Source of the DNA: Escherichia coli O127:H6 str. E2348/69
GTDB taxonomy: Bacteria > Pseudomonadota > Gammaproteobacteria > Enterobacterales > Enterobacteriaceae
Assembly (NCBI RefSeq): GCF_000026545.1
Contig: NC_011601.1
Strand: one strand, 5' to 3'
DNA length: 64,000 bases
Below the pieces are notes generated by a model. That model was not told the origin of the DNA. It searched no databases and was given only the letters and a program-made list of their open reading frames with translations. A program made the translations under genes and the position numbers. This document shows, in pieces, positions 1 to 42,886 of the stretch; the stretch's first letter is position 1, and every line of letters starts with the position of its first letter.

Positions 1-2045
1 AGCCAGCTCTGGTGCATGGCCTGCACGTAGCCTTTTACCGTTTCGGCGCGGCTCGGCATCGCACCGTCGATCCAGACACCGAGTTCCACGGGCGTACCAC
101 GCGCGATATCGCGGCCAAAATTGGGAGGGATCTCAATCGCCACCGTGATATCGCCCACACGCATCCGACGATCAAGTTCGTCATAACTGGTGAGCGGCGG
201 CTGTTCGATAAAATAACGGGAACCGGAGAGATTGAGCGTCCACGCCTGGCTACTGACGGTCTGGTCGCGATCAAGCACCGCAAAGCGCAGATTTTCCACA
301 TCCATACTGATGCCGTAACCCATTATCAGCATCAGGATCACCGTTCCCATCAGCGCCAGCGTCGAACGTACCGGATCGCGGCGCAGTTCCAGTGCTTCGC
401 GACGGCTGTAGCTAAACAGACGTCGCAGGCTAAATCCCTGACGCGGCGCGTGGGTGGTGTCATGTACCACAGGCGGCGCTTCGGCTTCGTTGCTCTGCCC
501 TGCCGCTTCCTGCAAATAGGCGATAAATGCCTCTTCCAGACTGGCGGCTCCGCGTTTCTCAACCAGTTCCTGCGGTGTACCGCTGGCGAGCACTTTTCCG
601 GCGTGCATTAGTGAGATGCGATCGCACCGTTCCGCTTCGTTCATAAAGTGGGTGGAGATGAAAATGGTCACTTTGTCCTGGCGCGAAAGATCGACCATTA
701 ACTGCCAGAACATATCCCTCGCCACCGGATCGACGCCAGAAGTTGGCTCATCGAGGATTAACATCTCCGGGCGATGAATCACCGCCACCGCCAGCGAAAG
801 CCGCTGGCGAATGCCGAGCGGTAATGACTCCGGCAGAACATCTTCAACGTCGTTGAGCTTAAAACGCTCGCTCATTTCAGCCACTCGCGCGGGAATTTCC
901 GCTTCCGGGATGTGAAACAAACGGGCATGTAACTCCAGGTTTTGCCGCACGGTGAGCTCGTTATAGAGCGAAAACGCCTGCGACATATAGCCCACCCGAC
1001 GGCGAGTATCGATATCTTTTGGATCAACCGGTTGCCCGAACAGCCACGCCTCACCTTCGCTGGCGGGCAGCAATCCGGTAAGCATTTTCATGGTGGTGGA
1101 TTTACCACAGCCGTTCGAACCAAGAAAACCAAAAATCTCCCCGCGTGGAATGCGGAAATTGACGTGATCAACGGCAACGAAGGAACCAAAACGCATGGTC
1201 AGATCGCGCGCTTCGATGGCAATCTCTGCGTTTTCAGGTTGATACGGTGGGATCACTACCGCCTGATGCGCCTGCCGTTGTGCTTGCGGTAACAGATTTA
1301 TAAATGCTTCTTCCAGCGTGGCGCTTTGCGTTTGCTGCCGCAACTCTTCGGCGCTACCGGTTGCCAGCACTTCTCCGGCATTCATCGCTACCAGCCAGTC
1401 GAAGCGTTCCGCCTCTTCCATATAGGCGGTGGCAACCAGCACGCTCATATTGCTCTGCCGCTGGCGAATACTGTCGATCAAATCCCAGAACTGGGCGCGA
1501 GAGAGCGGGTCAACCCCCGTTGTTGGCTCATCAAGAATCAACAATTCCGGGTCGTGGATTAACGCACAGCACAGCCCAAGTTTTTGCTTCATCCCGCCGG
1601 AGAGTTTCCCTGCCGGACGATCGCGAAACGGTGCTAATCCGGTGCTGGTCAGCAGCTCATTAATTCGCACTTCCCGCTCCGCTTTGTCGTGACCGAACAG
1701 GCGGGCGAAAAAATCGACGTTTTCATACACCGACAAGGTGTGGTAGAGATTTTTGCCCAGCCCCTGCGGCATCCAGGCGATGCGCGGGCAGACGTCGCGG
1801 CGATGCTTTGGGTCGCGCATATCGCCGCCCAGCACCATCACGCCGCCCTGCTCAATGACGCGGGCACCGGAAATCAACGACAACAAGCTCGATTTACCGA
1901 CACCATCCGGTCCAATCAGCCCGACCATGCAACGGGCCGGAATATCGAGTGTGATATTGTTCAGCGCAACGGTTTTTCCATAATGCTGGCTCACGCCCGC
2001 CAGTTGCGCGACAGGCGGGACGGGAACCAGTTCCAGATGCGTCAT
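1..2045 (-). CDS. rbbA: Ribosome-associated ATPase RbbA (fused ABC ATPase/permease), N-terminal portion; gene runs past the window start
   Basis: Minus-strand reading from ATG at 2045..2043 gives [53 protein letters not shown] with a Walker A motif. Plus-strand ORFs 12..611, 942..1292 and 1689..2366 are antisense to it. Confidence 0.9.
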
Positions 2046-3109
2046 TGCGGCAACCTCACCACCAGGTCGTCAGGCCACGGAAGTTCTTCATTCACCCGCA
2101 CCCACGCTACGCCCGGCAATCCGGTTTTGACATATTCCAGATGCTGCTGGAGTAATTCCGGTGGGATACGCGCTTTGACACGGAACATCAATTTCAGCCG
2201 TTCATCGCTGGTTTCGACGGTTTTTGGCGTGAACTGGGCGACGCTGGCGACAAAACTGATGGTCGCGGGAATACGCAGATCTGGCGCGGCATCGAGGATC
2301 AGCCGTGCTTCACCGCCCAGTTTCAGCGTGCCCGCCTGTTCGGTTGGCAGAAAGAAAGTCATATAGACGTCGCTGAGATCGACCATATTCAGCACCCGAC
2401 CGCCTGCTGCCAGCACTTCGCCTGGCTCGGCAACCCGATACTGCACGCGTCCGTCACGCGGGGCTTTCAGTTCGCTGTCATCGATATCTGCGGCAATGCG
2501 CCGTTCAGTGGCTTGTGCCGCTTCGACGCGAGTTTGCGCCTGAATGATATTGGTGCGTGCCGCCTCTATAGCGGCTTTAGAAGCAGAAACCTGAGCTTTT
2601 GCCGATTCCAGCGCAGCTCGGGCGCTCTCAGCGGCGGCGCGGTCGTCATCCAGCTGTTGCGCAGAAATTGCCCCCCGTTGTGCCAGTGAGCGGGAACGCG
2701 TATGACGTTTTGCTACGGAGTCCAGTTCTGCCTGGCGTTGATTAACCAGCGACTGTGCGGCACGAGTTTCGCTTTGGCGTTGCTCCAGCAAAGCCTGCGC
2801 GGCGGCAACGGCACTTTGTGCTTCTTTGATTTGCGCGATGGCTTCCAGTCGCTGTTCCTGCAACACGCGAGTATCCATCTTCGCCAGCACTTCACCTTCT
2901 CGAACAAACTGGCCTTCTTTCACCAGAATGGTGTCGATACGCCCGGCAATTTTGCTGGCGATATCCACTTCCGTCGCTTCAATGCGCCCATTGCTGACAG
3001 CAAAGCCTTCCGGCACACCCGCCGGGCGCAACAGCCACCACGCCACGACGGCAGCCACCGCCAGTGCCCCGACACCCCACCACGCCAGATGGCGCTTACT
3101 CTTATCCAT
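2042..3109 (-). CDS. yhiI: HlyD-family membrane fusion protein (efflux adaptor) YhiI
   Basis: 355-aa ORF with N-terminal membrane anchor, long coiled-coil and beta-barrel regions typical of HlyD/EmrA adaptors. Its stop overlaps the rbbA start (ATGA). Confidence 0.9.
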
Positions 3110-3842
3110 AATCGATCCGCCATAATCCCTGTAAGCAATCGACGCGTGTTACAACTGCCACCGAACGATGTTCAGCGGATTCTTCCATCCGGGATAAGAA
3201 GGAAATGGCAAATACGACCAGCGCACAGAGCATTGAGCGCCAATGGGGAAGGCTTAGTGAAAACGGGTAGTAATGTTGTCATCATCAGCATTCCTGGCCG
3301 TAAATGAAACACGCATACTCATAAGTGAAATCAATTAAATACTAACATTTATATTCATGTTGTCTATTTGATTGCCATCAACTTGTGATACATCGCGATG
3401 TTCTTCCGTTCGCTGGTGTTTTTTCCAAAAATATTCTGTACAGGTTCACAGATTCTGTTGCACAGGTTTCCGTAACAGGGAAACCTGATGACTATCACAT
3501 AGCGTTATTATCGCCTGATGTGCGAATAAATACCGAATATAAAATAATTTATTCTGAAAAGATGATAGATGATAAAGGCTCGTGGGTTTAATAAAATATT
3601 CCCTAAAAGACTCATTTAAAACAACAAAATAAGATAAAGATATTAATTCAGAGTTTATCTTAGGATAAATATTTATTTAATAGCATTAACTCACCGCTAA
3701 AAGTTGATCCCCATAACGCTAAATCCGATTATAGTGAAGTTACTTTTTTTAATTGATGGCATCTTATAGACATATTTAACTAACTGAAAAGACGAATCAT
3801 ATGTTTTTCGAAGTGTAGCAGAAAATATATATGGGGTTTAAA

Positions 3843-4895
3843 ATGAATATATATATCGGATGGTTGTTTAAATTAATTCCTTTACTGATGGGTATAATAT
3901 GCATCGCATTAGGTGAGTTTGTATTAACCGGTTCAGGGCAAAGTGAATATTTCGTTGCAGGGCATGTTCTGATTTCTCTTTCTGCGATATGTCTGGCATT
4001 GTTCACTACCGCATTTATTATTATATCTCAGTTAACTCACGGCATGAATAAATTCTACAACAGGTTATTTCCCGTTATTGGTTATGCCGGTTCTGCTACA
4101 ACTATGATTTGGGGATGGTCACTGTTGGCAAGCAATAATGTGATGGCAGATGAATTTGTCGCCGGTCATGTTATTTTCGGCGTTGGCATGATTGCCGCTT
4201 GTGTATCAACCGTAGCGGCATCTTCCGGACATTTTCTGTTGATCCCCAAAAACGCCTCGGGCAGTAAGAGTGACGGTACGCCATTGCAGGCCTATTCTTC
4301 AACAATCGGTAATTGCTTAATTGCCGTTCCCGTTCTGCTTACTCTCTTTGGTTTCATTTGGTCAGTCATACTGTTACGTAGTGCAGATATCACACCACAT
4401 TATGTTGCAGGTCACGTACTAATGGGGTTAACGGCAATTTGCGCTTGTCTTATTGGCCTTGTCGCCACTATTGTCCATCAAACGCGGAATACGTTCTCAG
4501 TGAAAGAACATTGGCTGTGGTGCTATTGGGTTATTTTGCTTGGCTCACTTACCATTATTTTTGGTATCTACGTATTAATCAGTTCAGATGCAAGCGCCCG
4601 CCTGGCCCCCGGCATTATTCTCATTTGCCTGGGGATGATCTGCTACAGTATTTTCTCCAAAGTGTGGTTGTTAGCGCTGGTATGGCGACGCACATGTTCG
4701 TTAGCCAACAGAATACCCATGATTCCGGTATTTACCTGTCTGTTTTGTCTGTTCCTTGCTGCGTTCCTGGCTGAAATTGCGCAAACCGATATGGCTTACT
4801 TTATTCCTTCGCGAGTTCTGGTTGGCTTAGGTGCAGTTTGTTTTACACTGTTTTCCATCGTTTCTATATTAGAAGCGGGTTCAGCGAAAAAATAA
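3843..4895 (+). CDS. yhiM: Inner-membrane protein YhiM (acid-resistance associated)
   Basis: Polytopic membrane ORF with repeated FVAGHV/YVAGHV motifs. Start chosen at the second in-frame ATG (MNIYIGW), giving 350 aa; the ORF track begins 12 nt earlier. Confidence 0.8.
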   Translation: MNIYIGWLFKLIPLLMGIICIALGEFVLTGSGQSEYFVAGHVLISLSAICLALFTTAFIIISQLTHGMNKFYNRLFPVIGYAGSATTMIWGWSLLASNNVMADEFVAGHVIFGVGMIAACVSTVAASSGHFLLIPKNASGSKSDGTPLQAYSSTIGNCLIAVPVLLTLFGFIWSVILLRSADITPHYVAGHVLMGLTAICACLIGLVATIVHQTRNTFSVKEHWLWCYWVILLGSLTIIFGIYVLISSDASARLAPGIILICLGMICYSIFSKVWLLALVWRRTCSLANRIPMIPVFTCLFCLFLAAFLAEIAQTDMAYFIPSRVLVGLGAVCFTLFSIVSILEAGSAKK

Positions 4896-4910
4896 TAAAA
4901 AAGGCTTCAG

Positions 4911-4931
4911 ATAAGGCGTTGGGCGCCTTAT
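4911..4931. terminator. Hairpin between convergent yhiM and yhiN
   Basis: Inverted repeat ataaggcg-ttgg-gcgccttat. Confidence 0.5.
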
Positions 4932-4981
4932 CTGGTTTTATTCAGGTTAATCCCTCCGGTATCGAGAGCGCATTTTGCTTC

Positions 4982-6175
4982 TTATTCTGCCACCAAATCC
5001 TGCGCACAAGCCCACGCACTCGACCACGCCCACTGGAAATTATAGCCCCCCAGCCAACCGGTGACGTCCATCACTTCGCCGATGAAGTACAGCCCAGGCA
5101 CTTTGCGCGCTTCCATCGTCCGTGAAGAGAGTTCGTTGGTGTCCACGCCGCCGAGCGTCACTTCAGCAGTACGATAGCCTTCAGTGCCGTTGGGTTGTAC
5201 GCGCCAGTCGGTCAATGTGCTAATCAGTGCCTGTTGGTCACGCACGTTGAGCTGTTTTAGCGAAACATCCGGGATTTGCCCGAGTTGCTGTAAACGTTCA
5301 ACCAACCGCTTCGGTAGATGAACCGCCAGTGTGTTTTTCAGGCTCTGATTCGGATGTGCATTACGCTGCTCATTCAGGAAGGTTTCGAGGTCCACATCCG
5401 GTAGCAGATTGATGCTGACAAATTCACCCGGTTGCCAGTAGCTGGAAATCTGCAACACCGCCGGTCCAGATAAGCCGCGGTGGGTGAAGAGTAAGTTCTC
5501 ACGGAAAACGGTACCGTTTTCAGCGGTAATCACGGAAGGCACCGCCACGCCCGCCAGCACCTGTAACTCTTCAAGCAACGGTTTATGCAGAGTGAATGGC
5601 ACCAGACCCGCACGGGTCGGCAGCACGTTGAGGCCAAATTGTTCGGCAATCTTATAACCAAACGGCGATGCGCCCAGCCCCGGCATTGACAGTCCACCGG
5701 TCGCGATGACCAGCTTTTCGCAACCGACAGTCATGCCGTTCAGTTCAAGCGTGAAGCCTGTATCATCCTTCGCCACGCTCAGCACTTCGCTACGCAATCT
5801 GAAGGCCACATTGCCCTTCTCGCACTCATCCACCAGCATGTCGACAATCTGCTGCGCGGAGTCATCGCAGAAGAGTTGCCCTAACGTTTTCTCGTGCCAG
5901 GCGATGCCGTGTTTATTGACCAGATCAATGAAATCCCACTGGGTAAAACGCGCGAGTGCAGACTTACAAAAATGCGGATTCTGGCTCAGATAAGCGCCCG
6001 GTTCGACATAAAGGTTGGTAAAGTTGCAGCGCCCACCGCCAGACATGAGGATTTTACGCCCTGGTTTTTTACCATTATCGATCAGCAGAACCCGGCGTCC
6101 TGCCTGACCTGCCAGCGCAGAACAGAACATCCCTGCCGCACCAGCGCCTATAATAATGGCATCAAACCTTTCCAC
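4982..6175 (-). CDS. yhiN: FAD-dependent oxidoreductase YhiN (HI0933 family)
   Basis: 397-aa ORF with N-terminal dinucleotide-binding motif IIGAGAAG. Confidence 0.9.
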   Translation of the reverse strand: MERFDAIIIGAGAAGMFCSALAGQAGRRVLLIDNGKKPGRKILMSGGGRCNFTNLYVEPGAYLSQNPHFCKSALARFTQWDFIDLVNKHGIAWHEKTLGQLFCDDSAQQIVDMLVDECEKGNVAFRLRSEVLSVAKDDTGFTLELNGMTVGCEKLVIATGGLSMPGLGASPFGYKIAEQFGLNVLPTRAGLVPFTLHKPLLEELQVLAGVAVPSVITAENGTVFRENLLFTHRGLSGPAVLQISSYWQPGEFVSINLLPDVDLETFLNEQRNAHPNQSLKNTLAVHLPKRLVERLQQLGQIPDVSLKQLNVRDQQALISTLTDWRVQPNGTEGYRTAEVTLGGVDTNELSSRTMEARKVPGLYFIGEVMDVTGWLGGYNFQWAWSSAWACAQDLVAE

Positions 6176-6406
6176 GTTGCGCTCCTCTAAGAAAAAACGG
6201 GCGTGAATTGTAAAGATTCCTCAGTAGTCGCACCAGCATCAATATTACTAAAAGGAAGTATTTGCCTGAATTATATAAGATAATTATTTTTTGAGTGGAA
6301 TCCATACAGGAGGCAAATCAAAAAAAGTCTATATTTCACTTTGCCCGCGCCGCGAAAGTCACTGATAATGCGCCGCGTTCATGTCCTCAAAATGGCGTAA
6401 CGTCCT

Positions 6407-7906
6407 ATGCTACATTTGTTTGCTGGCCTGGATTTGCATACCGGGCTGTTATTATTGCTTGCACTGGCTTTTGTGCTGTTCTACGAAGCCATCAATGGTT
6501 TCCATGACACAGCCAACGCCGTGGCAACCGTTATCTATACCCGCGCGATGCGTTCTCAGCTCGCCGTGGTTATGGCGGCGGTATTCAACTTTTTGGGTGT
6601 TTTGCTGGGTGGTCTGAGTGTTGCCTATGCCATTGTGCATATGCTGCCGACGGATCTGCTGCTTAATATGGGATCGTCTCATGGCCTTGCCATGGTGTTC
6701 TCTATGTTGCTGGCGGCGATTATCTGGAACCTGGGTACCTGGTACTTTGGTTTACCTGCATCCAGCTCTCATACGCTGATTGGCGCGATCATCGGGATTG
6801 GTTTAACCAATGCGTTGATGACCGGGACGTCAGTGGTGGATGCACTCAATATCCCGAAAGTATTAAGTATTTTCGGTTCTCTGATCGTTTCCCCTATTGT
6901 CGGCCTGGTGTTTGCTGGCGGTCTGATTTTCTTGCTGCGTCGCTACTGGAGCGGCACCAAGAAACGCGCCCGTATCCACCTGACCCCAGCGGAGCGTGAA
7001 AAGAAAGACGGCAAGAAAAAGCCGCCGTTCTGGACGCGTATTGCGCTGATCCTTTCCGCTATCGGCGTGGCGTTTTCGCATGGCGCGAACGATGGTCAGA
7101 AAGGCATTGGTCTGGTTATGTTGGTATTGATTGGTGTCGCACCAGCAGGCTTCGTGGTGAACATGAATGCCACTGGCTACGAAATCACCCGTACCCGTGA
7201 TGCCATCAACAACGTCGAAGCTTACTTTGAGCAGCATCCTGCGCTGCTGAAACAAGCGACCGGTGCTGATCAGTTAGTACCGGCTCCGGAAGCTGGCGCA
7301 ACGCAACCCGCGGAGTTCCATTGCCATCCGTCGAATACCATTAACGCGCTCAACCGCCTGAAAGGCATGTTGACTACCGATGTGGAAAGCTACGACAAGC
7401 TGTCGCTTGATCAACGTAGCCAGATGCGCCGCATTATGCTGTGCGTTTCTGACACTATCGACAAAGTGGTGAAGATGCCTGGCGTGAGTGCTGACGATCA
7501 GCGCCTGTTGAAGAAACTGAAGTCCGACATGCTTAGCACCATCGAGTATGCGCCGGTGTGGATCATCATGGCGGTCGCGCTGGCGTTAGGTATCGGTACG
7601 ATGATTGGCTGGCGTCGTGTGGCAACGACTATCGGTGAGAAAATCGGTAAGAAAGGCATGACCTACGCTCAGGGGATGTCTGCCCAGATGACGGCGGCAG
7701 TGTCTATCGGCCTGGCAAGTTATACCGGGATGCCGGTTTCCACTACTCACGTACTCTCCTCTTCTGTCGCGGGGACGATGGTGGTAGATGGCGGCGGCTT
7801 ACAGCGTAAAACCGTAACCAGTATTCTGATGGCCTGGGTATTTACCCTTCCGGCTGCGGTACTGCTTTCCGGCGGGCTGTACTGGCTCTCCTTGCAGTTC
7901 CTGTAA
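6407..7906 (+). CDS. pitA: Low-affinity inorganic phosphate transporter PitA
   Basis: 499-aa polytopic ORF with PiT-family motifs ([23 protein letters not shown]). Confidence 0.95.
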
Positions 7907-7923
7907 TCGTACGCACCAAAACG

Positions 7924-7953
7924 AGCGGGTCAGTTTACTGGCCCGCTTTTTTT
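7924..7953 (+). terminator. Rho-independent terminator after pitA
   Basis: agcgggtcag-tttactg-gcccgct hairpin followed by a T-run. Confidence 0.7.
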
Positions 7954-7976
7954 ATGCGTCATTATTGCTGAAGTGC

Positions 7977-8312
7977 TTAATGCCAAATCATCAATGCAAT
8001 CAGGCTGACCACCACCAGACCACACAATGCGCTGGTCAGAATAAACTGCCGACGCACCCGCTCACAGCGGCGAATAAACTCATCATCGTGATGATCGCGA
8101 TAACGTTGGGCATAGATATACCAAACGAGACGCACCTGTTTGTTGGGTTGGCCATGTGAGGTAAAAAAGCCCCCTCCATCAACATATTGATAGAGCAATG
8201 GATCGCAGTTACGCAGTACCACTAACAACGCGCGTAGTGATGAGAAATAGCGCGCCATGTTAACAATGCAAACGACACATAAAGCCCAAAATAATGCGAC
8301 GGTGCTTATCAT
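7977..8312 (-). CDS. uspB: Universal stress protein B
   Basis: 111-aa two-TM ORF ([50 protein letters not shown]...) divergent from uspA. Confidence 0.95.
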
Positions 8313-23197: not shown

Positions 23198-23524
23198 GAT
23201 CAATTTTTTATGATCAAGCTTTTTTTAACCGCCATTAACGCAATAAACAGGGGGTTATGAAATCTATCCAGCATCCAGAAAACCATCCTGTGTTTATGGC
23301 TATCCCCCCACAACCTCATCACAAAACGTTGTCGTTAACAGTGATAATTTTCTCTTCTCTTTGCTCTGCAAGCCGCGATATCTCCGGGTTCTCAGCTTTT
23401 TCCCGCGCTGAAATTTAATCGGTAACAAGAACATTAGCTGACGAAGCATCTTGATAAAAATCAAAAATAAATACGCTTGTAACGCCGTGCGTATTGAATC
23501 GACGGTTGTATTTCATATATAACT

Positions 23525-42872: not shown

Positions 42873-42886
42873 TTGATAGGAATCAA
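42873..42886. promoter_or_regulatory. FNR-type box upstream of yhjA
   Basis: ttgataggaatcaa matches TTGAT-N4-ATCAA exactly, about 110 bp upstream of the yhjA start. Confidence 0.6.

Follow-up and report, generated by a model that had tools for sequence, protein, structure and literature searches.

Escherichia coli O127:H6 str. E2348/69 carries a short AT-rich interval between yhiI and yhiM, at a place where K-12 carries additional genes. Is this interval what remains after those genes were lost, or is it an arrangement in its own right? We analysed a window of 64,000 nucleotides (nt) from this strain (NCBI RefSeq assembly GCF_000026545.1, contig NC_011601.1). A preliminary description made from the sequence had put the spacer at about 730 base pairs (bp), and it measures 733 bp (3110..3842), from the end of yhiI at 3109 to the start of yhiM at 3843. 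We find that it is an intact short allele and not a deletion scar; five other Escherichia genome-species have it too, and constraint on it is visible. With a probability of roughly 80%, it represents the short form of an old two-allele Escherichia locus and forms a compact divergent control region.

Comparison with K-12 and the search for gene remnants

Comparing window positions 1..8000 with the K-12 locus by blastn gives three segments, with identities of 96.3% (3..3339), 80.4% (3833..4896) and 98.2% (4987..7948). Both loci have the same flanks in the same order (a left flank of rbbA, yhiI and yhiY, a right flank of yhiN and pitA) and yhiM in the same orientation, and the yhiY open reading frame (ORF) and its promoter are alike up to window position 3367. 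On the left side, K-12 is collinear to 3327, then has ~105 extra bases, a homolog of 3331..3367 and the 3' end of yhiJ. The preliminary description had named yhiJ and the yhiL pseudogene for K-12, and both are present between the same flanks, the pseudogene being a frameshifted member of the YhiJ/YhiL family. These two and the 105-bp leader segment are all missing from the window, which has 232 bp of unrelated DNA instead. In addition, the yhiM promoter region is ~67% and yhiM 80% identical to K-12, and both the yhiM–yhiN spacer (86–90 bp here versus ~320 bp in K-12) and the YhiN C-terminus differ.

The variable block runs from ~3328/3368 to 4986, yhiM included, between flanks that are 96–99% identical to K-12. 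The suggestion that this is a strain-variable junction is borne out by the K-12 comparison and by the genome counts given below, and the short spacer is absent from K-12. The variability is, however, not limited to the spacer, as had been supposed: it extends through yhiM into the last codons of yhiN, where the junction alignment places the right edge at 4986/4987. The yhiN gene is clipped by this haplotype boundary (4982..4986), with the window protein ending in ...AQDLVAE and the K-12 protein in ...AQDLIAAKSS. Inside the block, yhiM differs from its K-12 counterpart with a synonymous divergence (dS) of 1.36 and a nonsynonymous to synonymous ratio (dN/dS) of 0.046; in the flanks, yhiI is 96.6% identical with a dS of 0.125, and pitA has a dS of 0.047.

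One explanation of the short spacer is that a K-12-like ancestor carried yhiJ-yhiL and that the B2 lineage lost them, leaving decayed remnants. K-12 and 4,288 of 5,426 genomes carry yhiJ/yhiL, the spacer is AT-rich, as are these genes, and deletions do occur at the locus, as seen in a yhiM remnant in an E. albertii long allele and a yhiJ fragment in Escherichia sp. MOD1-EC7003 (locus L006). Nevertheless, the gene remnants that the preliminary description had thought possible were detected neither by tblastn or tblastx nor by a DUF4049 profile. K-12 YhiJ (tblastn) and the yhiL pseudogene (tblastx) gave only matches at E>0.3 in 3000..3950 and nothing at E<=0.01 window-wide, and no YhiJ-like frame could be recovered from the spacer. 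The DUF4049 (PF13258) profile was built from five proteins, including E. albertii copies 55–57% identical, and was run with filters off on the six-frame translation of 3100..3900; its best match had E=0.29, with negative bit scores. As a positive control, the same profile recovers the 141-bp yhiJ fragment of L006 with E=5.6e-20. Moreover, the 232 bp found only in the short form have no long-allele counterpart and could not have arisen by simple deletion, the linked yhiM differs at dS 1.36, and the same short spacer, with its constrained blocks, is found in other Escherichia species. We regard the deletion account as largely refuted and give it a very small probability.

The composition of the interval is less uniform than had been described. 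At 35.7% GC overall, against 50.3% for the whole window, it is AT-rich, but 3110..3285 has ~49% GC, compared with 30.8% for 3300..3842 and 27.2% for 3600..3842. Nor is it wholly non-coding: inside it lies yhiY (3172..3285, minus strand), which is annotated in RefSeq, matches Pfam entry PF23514 and is detected by ribosome profiling in K-12. The two short ORFs that had been named as the only ones, at 3385..3591 and 3797..4006, do exist and have no Pfam match, but yhiY had been missed.

Could the AT-rich part encode an unannotated small protein or RNA, for example from the 68-codon ORF at 3385..3591? A promoter-like site does occur at 3569..3597 on the plus strand; such sites, however, number 5 versus 6.2 in shuffles, and the ORF, for which Pfam gives no match, is broken in all four other species. 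A search of Rfam 15 at E<=1 gave 0 matches in 2900..5100, and nothing is annotated there in 1,128 genomes. We consider a product of this kind highly improbable.

Two alleles within E. coli and across Escherichia

The frequency of each form was assessed in 5,426 complete E. coli genomes. Identity of yhiM to the window copy is bimodal, being at least 99% in 1,127 genomes, 95–99% in 1 and ~80% in 4,250. A 237-bp probe specific to the short form is present in exactly 1,128 genomes, in a single chromosomal copy with nothing annotated there, and the contiguous yhiI–spacer–yhiM arrangement of the window in 1,123. The yhiJ/yhiL region is present in 4,288 genomes (~79%). The counts of the short and long forms (1,128 versus 4,288) agree with two alleles that exclude each other. 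Among the strains listed with the short allele are E2348/69, Nissle 1917, ST131, LF82 and IMT5155, which we take to belong to phylogroup B2.

For outgroups, a single scan of species-representative genomes with two strict peptide patterns identified six Escherichia loci; E. fergusonii was not seen. The order yhiI–yhiY–short spacer–yhiM recurs in E. albertii (L008), E. whittamii (L007), Escherichia sp. E1V33 (L004) and L005. L003 has a short-type yhiM and spacer, its contig beginning inside the spacer so that the left side lies outside the contig. Judged by the flanking genes, the closest relative of the window is K-12, and vice versa (96–99%). In yhiM, the window groups with the other species (88–97%), and K-12 is ~80% identical to every one of them. 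Short-type yhiM of the other species differs from the window copy with a dS of 0.33–0.54, and because this resembles the flank dS of 0.18–0.39, vertical descent of the short-type gene fits. A further candidate outgroup with a yhiM–DUF4049 pair (L011) was rejected as a noisy E. coli long-type assembly.

YhiJ relatives are almost wholly from Escherichia/Shigella. Some E. albertii carry a 57%-identical relative in the order pitA–yhiN–(no yhiM)–yhiL'–yhiJ'–yhiY–yhiI. This allele has the same left junction as in E. coli, with the same 105 bp in the leader and the same transition into the 3' end of yhiJ, and its yhiY flank is of E. albertii type. Between the two species, yhiJ has a dS of 1.15 and a dN/dS of 0.25, and yhiL a dS of 0.94 and a dN/dS of 0.37, a divergence ~four times deeper than the species split. 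Because the short form occurs in other species, and a diverged long form with the same left junction in E. albertii, we conclude that both alleles predate E. coli and that the present long allele did not give rise to the short one. The idea that the short allele is ancestral and the long one a recent insertion in the K-12 lineage is weakened by the same E. albertii allele. The alleles recombine, as can be seen in L006, whose yhiM is a mosaic of long type over the first ~720 nt and short type after.

In an E. albertii long-type locus (L009 5381..6120), only a yhiM 3' remnant (residues 327–346) and a terminator-hairpin region lie between yhiN and yhiL'. Since this remnant persists, yhiM was deleted there, and the E. 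albertii long cassette without yhiM constitutes a third allele state.

Another explanation is a one-way insertion of foreign DNA, in which the short form would be ancestral genus-wide, and AT-rich yhiJ-yhiL together with a xenologous yhiM would have entered once from outside Escherichia, after which recombination in the flanks would have carried the cassette between E. coli and E. albertii. All short-type yhiM alleles form a clade that excludes the K-12 type, and the gene as a whole is patchily distributed, other enterobacteria having no close relative of it. The cassette has 36–37% GC against 59% for yhiI, the short arrangement is found in six genome-species, and the one junction common to the long alleles of E. 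coli and E. albertii implies that these arose once. The signs of such an entry are missing, however. In K-12 and strain 3036, the annotation of the yhiY–yhiM segment contains no integrase, transposase or other mobility gene (no systematic search was made for direct repeats at its edges), and the cassette has no phage matches and no copy on true plasmids, its 'plasmid' matches being 4.8–4.9 Mb records of mislabelled chromosomes. DUF4049 matches are essentially all from Escherichia/Shigella, with no visible donor. At dS 1.15, the long alleles of the two species are as far apart as long from short, and the long form must therefore have had a very long history, either within the genus or in some relative not yet sampled. 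We consider this origin possible, though doubtful.

Strain-variable replacement regions and integration hotspots are known from the E. coli chromosome, and the locus is an example of this known kind of genome variation, which is routine from strain to strain. As in other such regions, alternative content lies between core genes, the inserts are AT-rich and other lineages show further rearrangements at this very site. This locus differs in having no mobility gene, tRNA or repeat signature (with the above limit on direct repeats), and in the presence of only two main alleles in 5,400 genomes, with dS>1 and both in two species. Literature searches for yhiJ, yhiL, DUF4049 and FNR–yhiI found no description of the polymorphism. 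Relative to the searched literature, the depth of the split, its occurrence in two species and its linkage to yhiM are apparently new.

Regarding the long-allele proteins, K-12 YhiJ (L002 9676..11298) contains GDQTGDR and LAGNHE motifs and has a sub-threshold match to Pfam Metallophos (17.4 bits, cut-off 21.5), for which reason the DUF4049 proteins look like divergent metallophosphoesterases. YhiJ variants within E. coli have protein identities as low as ~75–87%. PADLOC gave no defence-system match for YhiJ or either YhiM allele.

Control regions of the short allele

On the two-allele reading that we favour, the left third of the interval (3110..~3405, minus strand) comprises the yhiY upstream ORF (uORF), a 47-nt leader, the sigma-70 promoter of yhiY-yhiI-rbbA-yhhJ and a predicted FNR box, and the K-12 leader undergoes Rho-dependent premature termination. 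The right part (~3600..3842) is the AT-rich regulatory region of yhiM, with a GadE-like box in both alleles and CpxR bound in a uropathogenic E. coli (UPEC) strain. In K-12 and ~79% of E. coli, ~3328/3368 to 4986 is replaced by ~5.4 kb, made up of the ~105 leader bases, the fast-evolving DUF4049 genes yhiJ and yhiL, another yhiM promoter region, a yhiM with saturated synonymous divergence and a yhiM–yhiN spacer of greater length. The alleles exchange through homologous recombination, for which both the conserved flanks and yhiM itself serve as sites. The coordinates of all features are given in Table 1.

Table 1. Features of the yhiI–pitA part of the window (strand: +, -, or. where none applies)
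Feature	Position	Strand	Details
yhiI	2042..3109	-	RefSeq annotation of E2348/69, ORF list
yhiY–yhiI gap	3110..3171	-	Within 3..3339, collinear with K-12 without gaps
yhiY	3172..3285	-	RefSeq annotation of E2348/69
Nearly invariant block	3257..3405	.	Five Escherichia genome-species; spans yhiY start, leader, promoter and FNR box
yhiY 5' leader	3286..3332	-	47 nt; transcription start 3332 placed by homology with K-12
Predicted sigma-70 promoter of yhiY-yhiI	3366..3339	-	-35 TAGACA (3366..3361), 16-nt spacer, TG-extended -10 TAGTAT (3344..3339)
Candidate FNR box TTGATTGCCATCAA	3368..3381	.	Perfect consensus TTGAT-N4-ATCAA, 10/10
Short-allele-specific DNA	3368..3599	.	232 bp without counterpart in K-12 or E. 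albertii long alleles
68-aa ORF	3385..3591	+	Not a gene: no Pfam match; stops or frameshifts in all four other species
yhiM upstream regulatory region	3600..3842	+	27% GC; ~67% identical to K-12 yhiL–yhiM intergenic region
GadE/RcsB GAD-box-like block TTAGGATAAATATTTATTTA	3660..3679	.	Among few stretches kept in both alleles
K-12-equivalent yhiM promoter	3784..3820	+	-35 CTGAAA (3784..3789), -10 TTCGAA (3807..3812), start-equivalent A3820
69-aa ORF	3797..4006	-	Unsupported as gene: no Pfam match; mostly antisense inside yhiM
Dual in-frame ATGs ATGGGGTTTAAAATG	3831..3845	+	3831 and 3843
yhiM (DUF2776), short-type	3843..4895	+	RefSeq annotation of E2348/69 (PGAP start 3843); DNA 80.2%, protein 90–91% identical to K-12
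yhiM–yhiN spacer, short-type	4896..4986	.	Bidirectional terminator-like hairpin 4907..4935 (terminator scan)
yhiN	4982..6175	-	RefSeq annotation of E2348/69
pitA	6407..7906	+	RefSeq annotation of E2348/69

The small ORF yhiY encodes 37 amino acids (aa), MMTTLLPVFTKPSPLALNALCAGRICHFLLIPDGRIR, and is annotated in both E2348/69 and K-12, in which ribosome profiling detects it (bioRxiv 10.1101/511675). It matches Pfam PF23514 over its full length (1–37) with 96.2 bits (cut-off 27; E=8.6e-28). Its start is the second of three in-frame AUGs, a choice that agrees with the K-12 ribosome profiling. In an alignment of five Escherichia species, the ORF is intact in four and its N-terminus is invariant. 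Adams et al. (2021; PMC7815308) list yhiY as a candidate regulatory uORF, with RNA 3' ends directly downstream, and we likewise treat it as a candidate regulatory uORF of yhiI-rbbA-yhhJ. All five species have an invariant N-terminus, MMTTLLPVFT, and invariant DNA around the start; the middle of the ORF varies, comparison of the window with K-12 gives a dN/dS of 0.70, and Escherichia sp. E1V33 carries a frameshift. Given these four observations, a regulatory leader ORF seems a better fit than a protein with its own function.

In K-12, Rho-dependent RNA 3' ends map to -43 and -65 relative to the start of yhiI (PMC7815308), which correspond to window positions ~3152 and ~3174. The published K-12 construct of the yhiI 5' untranslated region begins at GAGACTGTTGATAAAACG, according to its primer sequence (PMC7815308). 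In K-12, GAGACTGTTGATAAAACG begins 7 nt past the -10 TACTAT, and the homologous G in the window is 3332. The yhiY start is placed there because the homologous K-12 element sits 7 nt upstream of the published 5' end. The promoter itself (TAGACA-16-TGtTAGTAT) was found by a promoter scan, and its K-12 homolog precedes that 5' end. In the five-species alignment, 3259..3318 is 100% invariant among genomes whose coding genes differ by 5–8%; beyond 3405 lies the least conserved part of the spacer, with 10–50% invariance and indels. Compared with the candidate uORF and Rho-dependent attenuator of Adams 2021 and Weaver 2019, the window is collinear with K-12 and 96–97% identical to it in the ORF, its Shine-Dalgarno sequence and the gap between yhiY and yhiI. 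The differences are the leader, which lacks the ~105 nt that the long allele has just downstream of the start, and the FNR consensus upstream of the promoter; the regulation published is that of the K-12 long allele.

The FNR box comprises the first short-allele-specific bases and adjoins the -35 region of the yhiY promoter. It is absent from K-12, and the K-12 and E. albertii long alleles diverge at that point; the other short-type species have TTGATTAC[C/T/A]ATCAG, a 9/10 match. The 64-kb window contains 3 perfect FNR sites versus 0.08 expected. In class II FNR promoters, of which ccp/yhjA is an FNR-activated example, the site is centred near -41.5. Here too a perfect box stands beside the -35 element, with its centre at -42.5 from a start, 3332, that is placed by homology. 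From this class II-like placement, we predict that FNR may control yhiY-yhiI. Of the other two perfect boxes, one (23451..23464, TTGATAAAAATCAA) is found ~121 bp upstream of chuT, between this gene and the divergent chuA, in front of an operon that includes the anaerobic haem-degradation gene chuW/hutW, and the other (42873..42886, TTGATAGGAATCAA) lies ~108 bp upstream of ccp (yhjA).

In UPEC CFT073, 500 bp of DNA from the upstream side of yhiM complements a yhiM mutant and binds CpxR in electrophoretic mobility shift assays (PMC11005409). The CpxR box GTAAA-N5-GTAAA has two matches at 2 mismatches versus 1.7 expected, i.e. chance level, and the same paper likewise reports no CpxR consensus despite the binding. 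We compared the GAD-box-like block with TTAGGAttTTgTTATTTAAa or TTARGAWWWWAAATA; positions 3660..3674 match the latter, the GadE motif from chromatin immunoprecipitation with exonuclease digestion (ChIP-exo), at 12/15. The agreement with this motif falls on the TTAGGA core, which both alleles keep, and on an A/T-rich right half. The closest known boxes are the GAD boxes of gadA and gadBC, bound by GadE/RcsB, and K-12 yhiM is listed as GadE/GadX-controlled (PMC4918353). GadE may act on yhiM through this predicted box, although the gadA GAD box is centred at -63 and the window box lies ~150 bp upstream of the K-12-equivalent yhiM start.

The K-12 yhiM transcription start was mapped 22 nt upstream of the GTG start codon (PMC6604978). 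The equivalent -10 in the window, TTCGAA, is without the terminal T of K-12 TTCAAT. TATAGT at 3730..3735 was considered as a second yhiM -10 and was rejected for want of an acceptable -35 at 16–18 nt; it and its surroundings are kept in both alleles, though the region is ~67% identical overall. The in-frame ATG at 3843 corresponds in the alignment to the GTG start of K-12, which follows GAGGAG-N6, and the one at 3831 gives the N-terminus MGFKM, as in the 354-aa database form. The copper-related MXXXM motif reported for UPEC YhiM (PMC11005409) is this MGFKM, and its interpretation depends on use of the upstream ATG. If the transcription start is conserved, ATG 3831 would have an 11-nt leader with no Shine-Dalgarno sequence, and GGGG at 3833..3836 would serve 3843. 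Because the mapped K-12 start aligns with 3843, deleting XXXM, as published, would take away the likely ribosome-binding site and start codon as well.

Several points weigh against the two-allele reading or against parts of it. The outgroup loci number only six and come from a strict-pattern scan. The L003 yhiM is 97% identical to the window and its flanks only 91–95%, which indicates transfer of short alleles between lineages as well. Outside Escherichia, the closest YhiM has ~60% identity, too little to root the yhiM tree, and with a long allele present in two species at very deep divergence, neither allele is surely the derived one. Folding of the leader RNA is unremarkable (z = -0.8, no better than shuffles). 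The FNR box is centred at -42.5 and not at the textbook -41.5, from a start placed by homology only, and the literature search found no published experiment tying FNR to the yhiY-yhiI operon. Finally, the GadE-like box matches at only 12/15 and stands ~150 bp upstream of A3820, not at -63.

Consequences of the allele state and neighbouring DNA

Work on yhiM has regarded it as part of the conserved core, differing between strains in 'minor' ways (PMC11005409). The silent-site divergence between the UPEC/B2 and K-12 copies is, however, that of genes from different genera. As the copies are deeply diverged and their promoters and neighbours differ, yhiM phenotypes should not be carried over from UPEC/B2 to K-12 or the reverse. 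Similarly, work on the yhiY–yhiI leader has all been done on the long allele, and the short allele, with a leader 105 nt shorter and a perfect FNR box, offers a testable regulatory difference.

More speculatively, the whole yhiY–yhiN segment might be an ancient cross-species dimorphism kept by selection, in which an 'empty' state alternates with one that has two fast-evolving DUF4049 phosphoesterase-like genes, each state being tied to a deeply diverged yhiM of its own and to its own promoters on either side. We put this forward as a tentative proposal that may well be wrong. If it is true, the allele state would explain why yhiM mutants have different phenotypes in UPEC (copper) and K-12 (acid), in place of 'minor variation' in a core gene, and would decide whether the yhiY-yhiI-rbbA-yhhJ transporter operon, whose yhiI product is a HlyD-family membrane-fusion protein (Pfam HlyD_3/HlyD_D23), is under FNR control.

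The DNA around the locus varies as well. In L006 (1..11200), yhhJ-rbbA-yhiI-yhiY are missing, and a nik-like ABC transporter, a GntR regulator, PTS EIIA/EIIC-GAT components, an FGGY kinase and a class II aldolase adjoin the 141-bp yhiJ fragment. In L005 (11054..21050) and L004 (8964..18960), yhiM is not followed by yhiN-pitA but by DNA without a match to the 64-kb window. Past yhiM, L005 encodes an ArsP-type permease, a 1,965-aa DUF4011/AAA_11/AAA_12/REase_MTES_1575/DUF3320 protein of helicase-nuclease architecture and an OYE-type oxidoreductase, and L004 contains a 2,964-aa ORF. The far end of the yhhJ-rbbA-yhiI operon is also variable: K-12 (L002 1..4400) has rhsB, yhhH and an ISEc1 transposase beside yhhJ, and a HicAB toxin-antitoxin pair lies between yhhJ and nikR in E. 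coli strain 3036 and in E. albertii (L012 1197..1783, L009 14988..15619).

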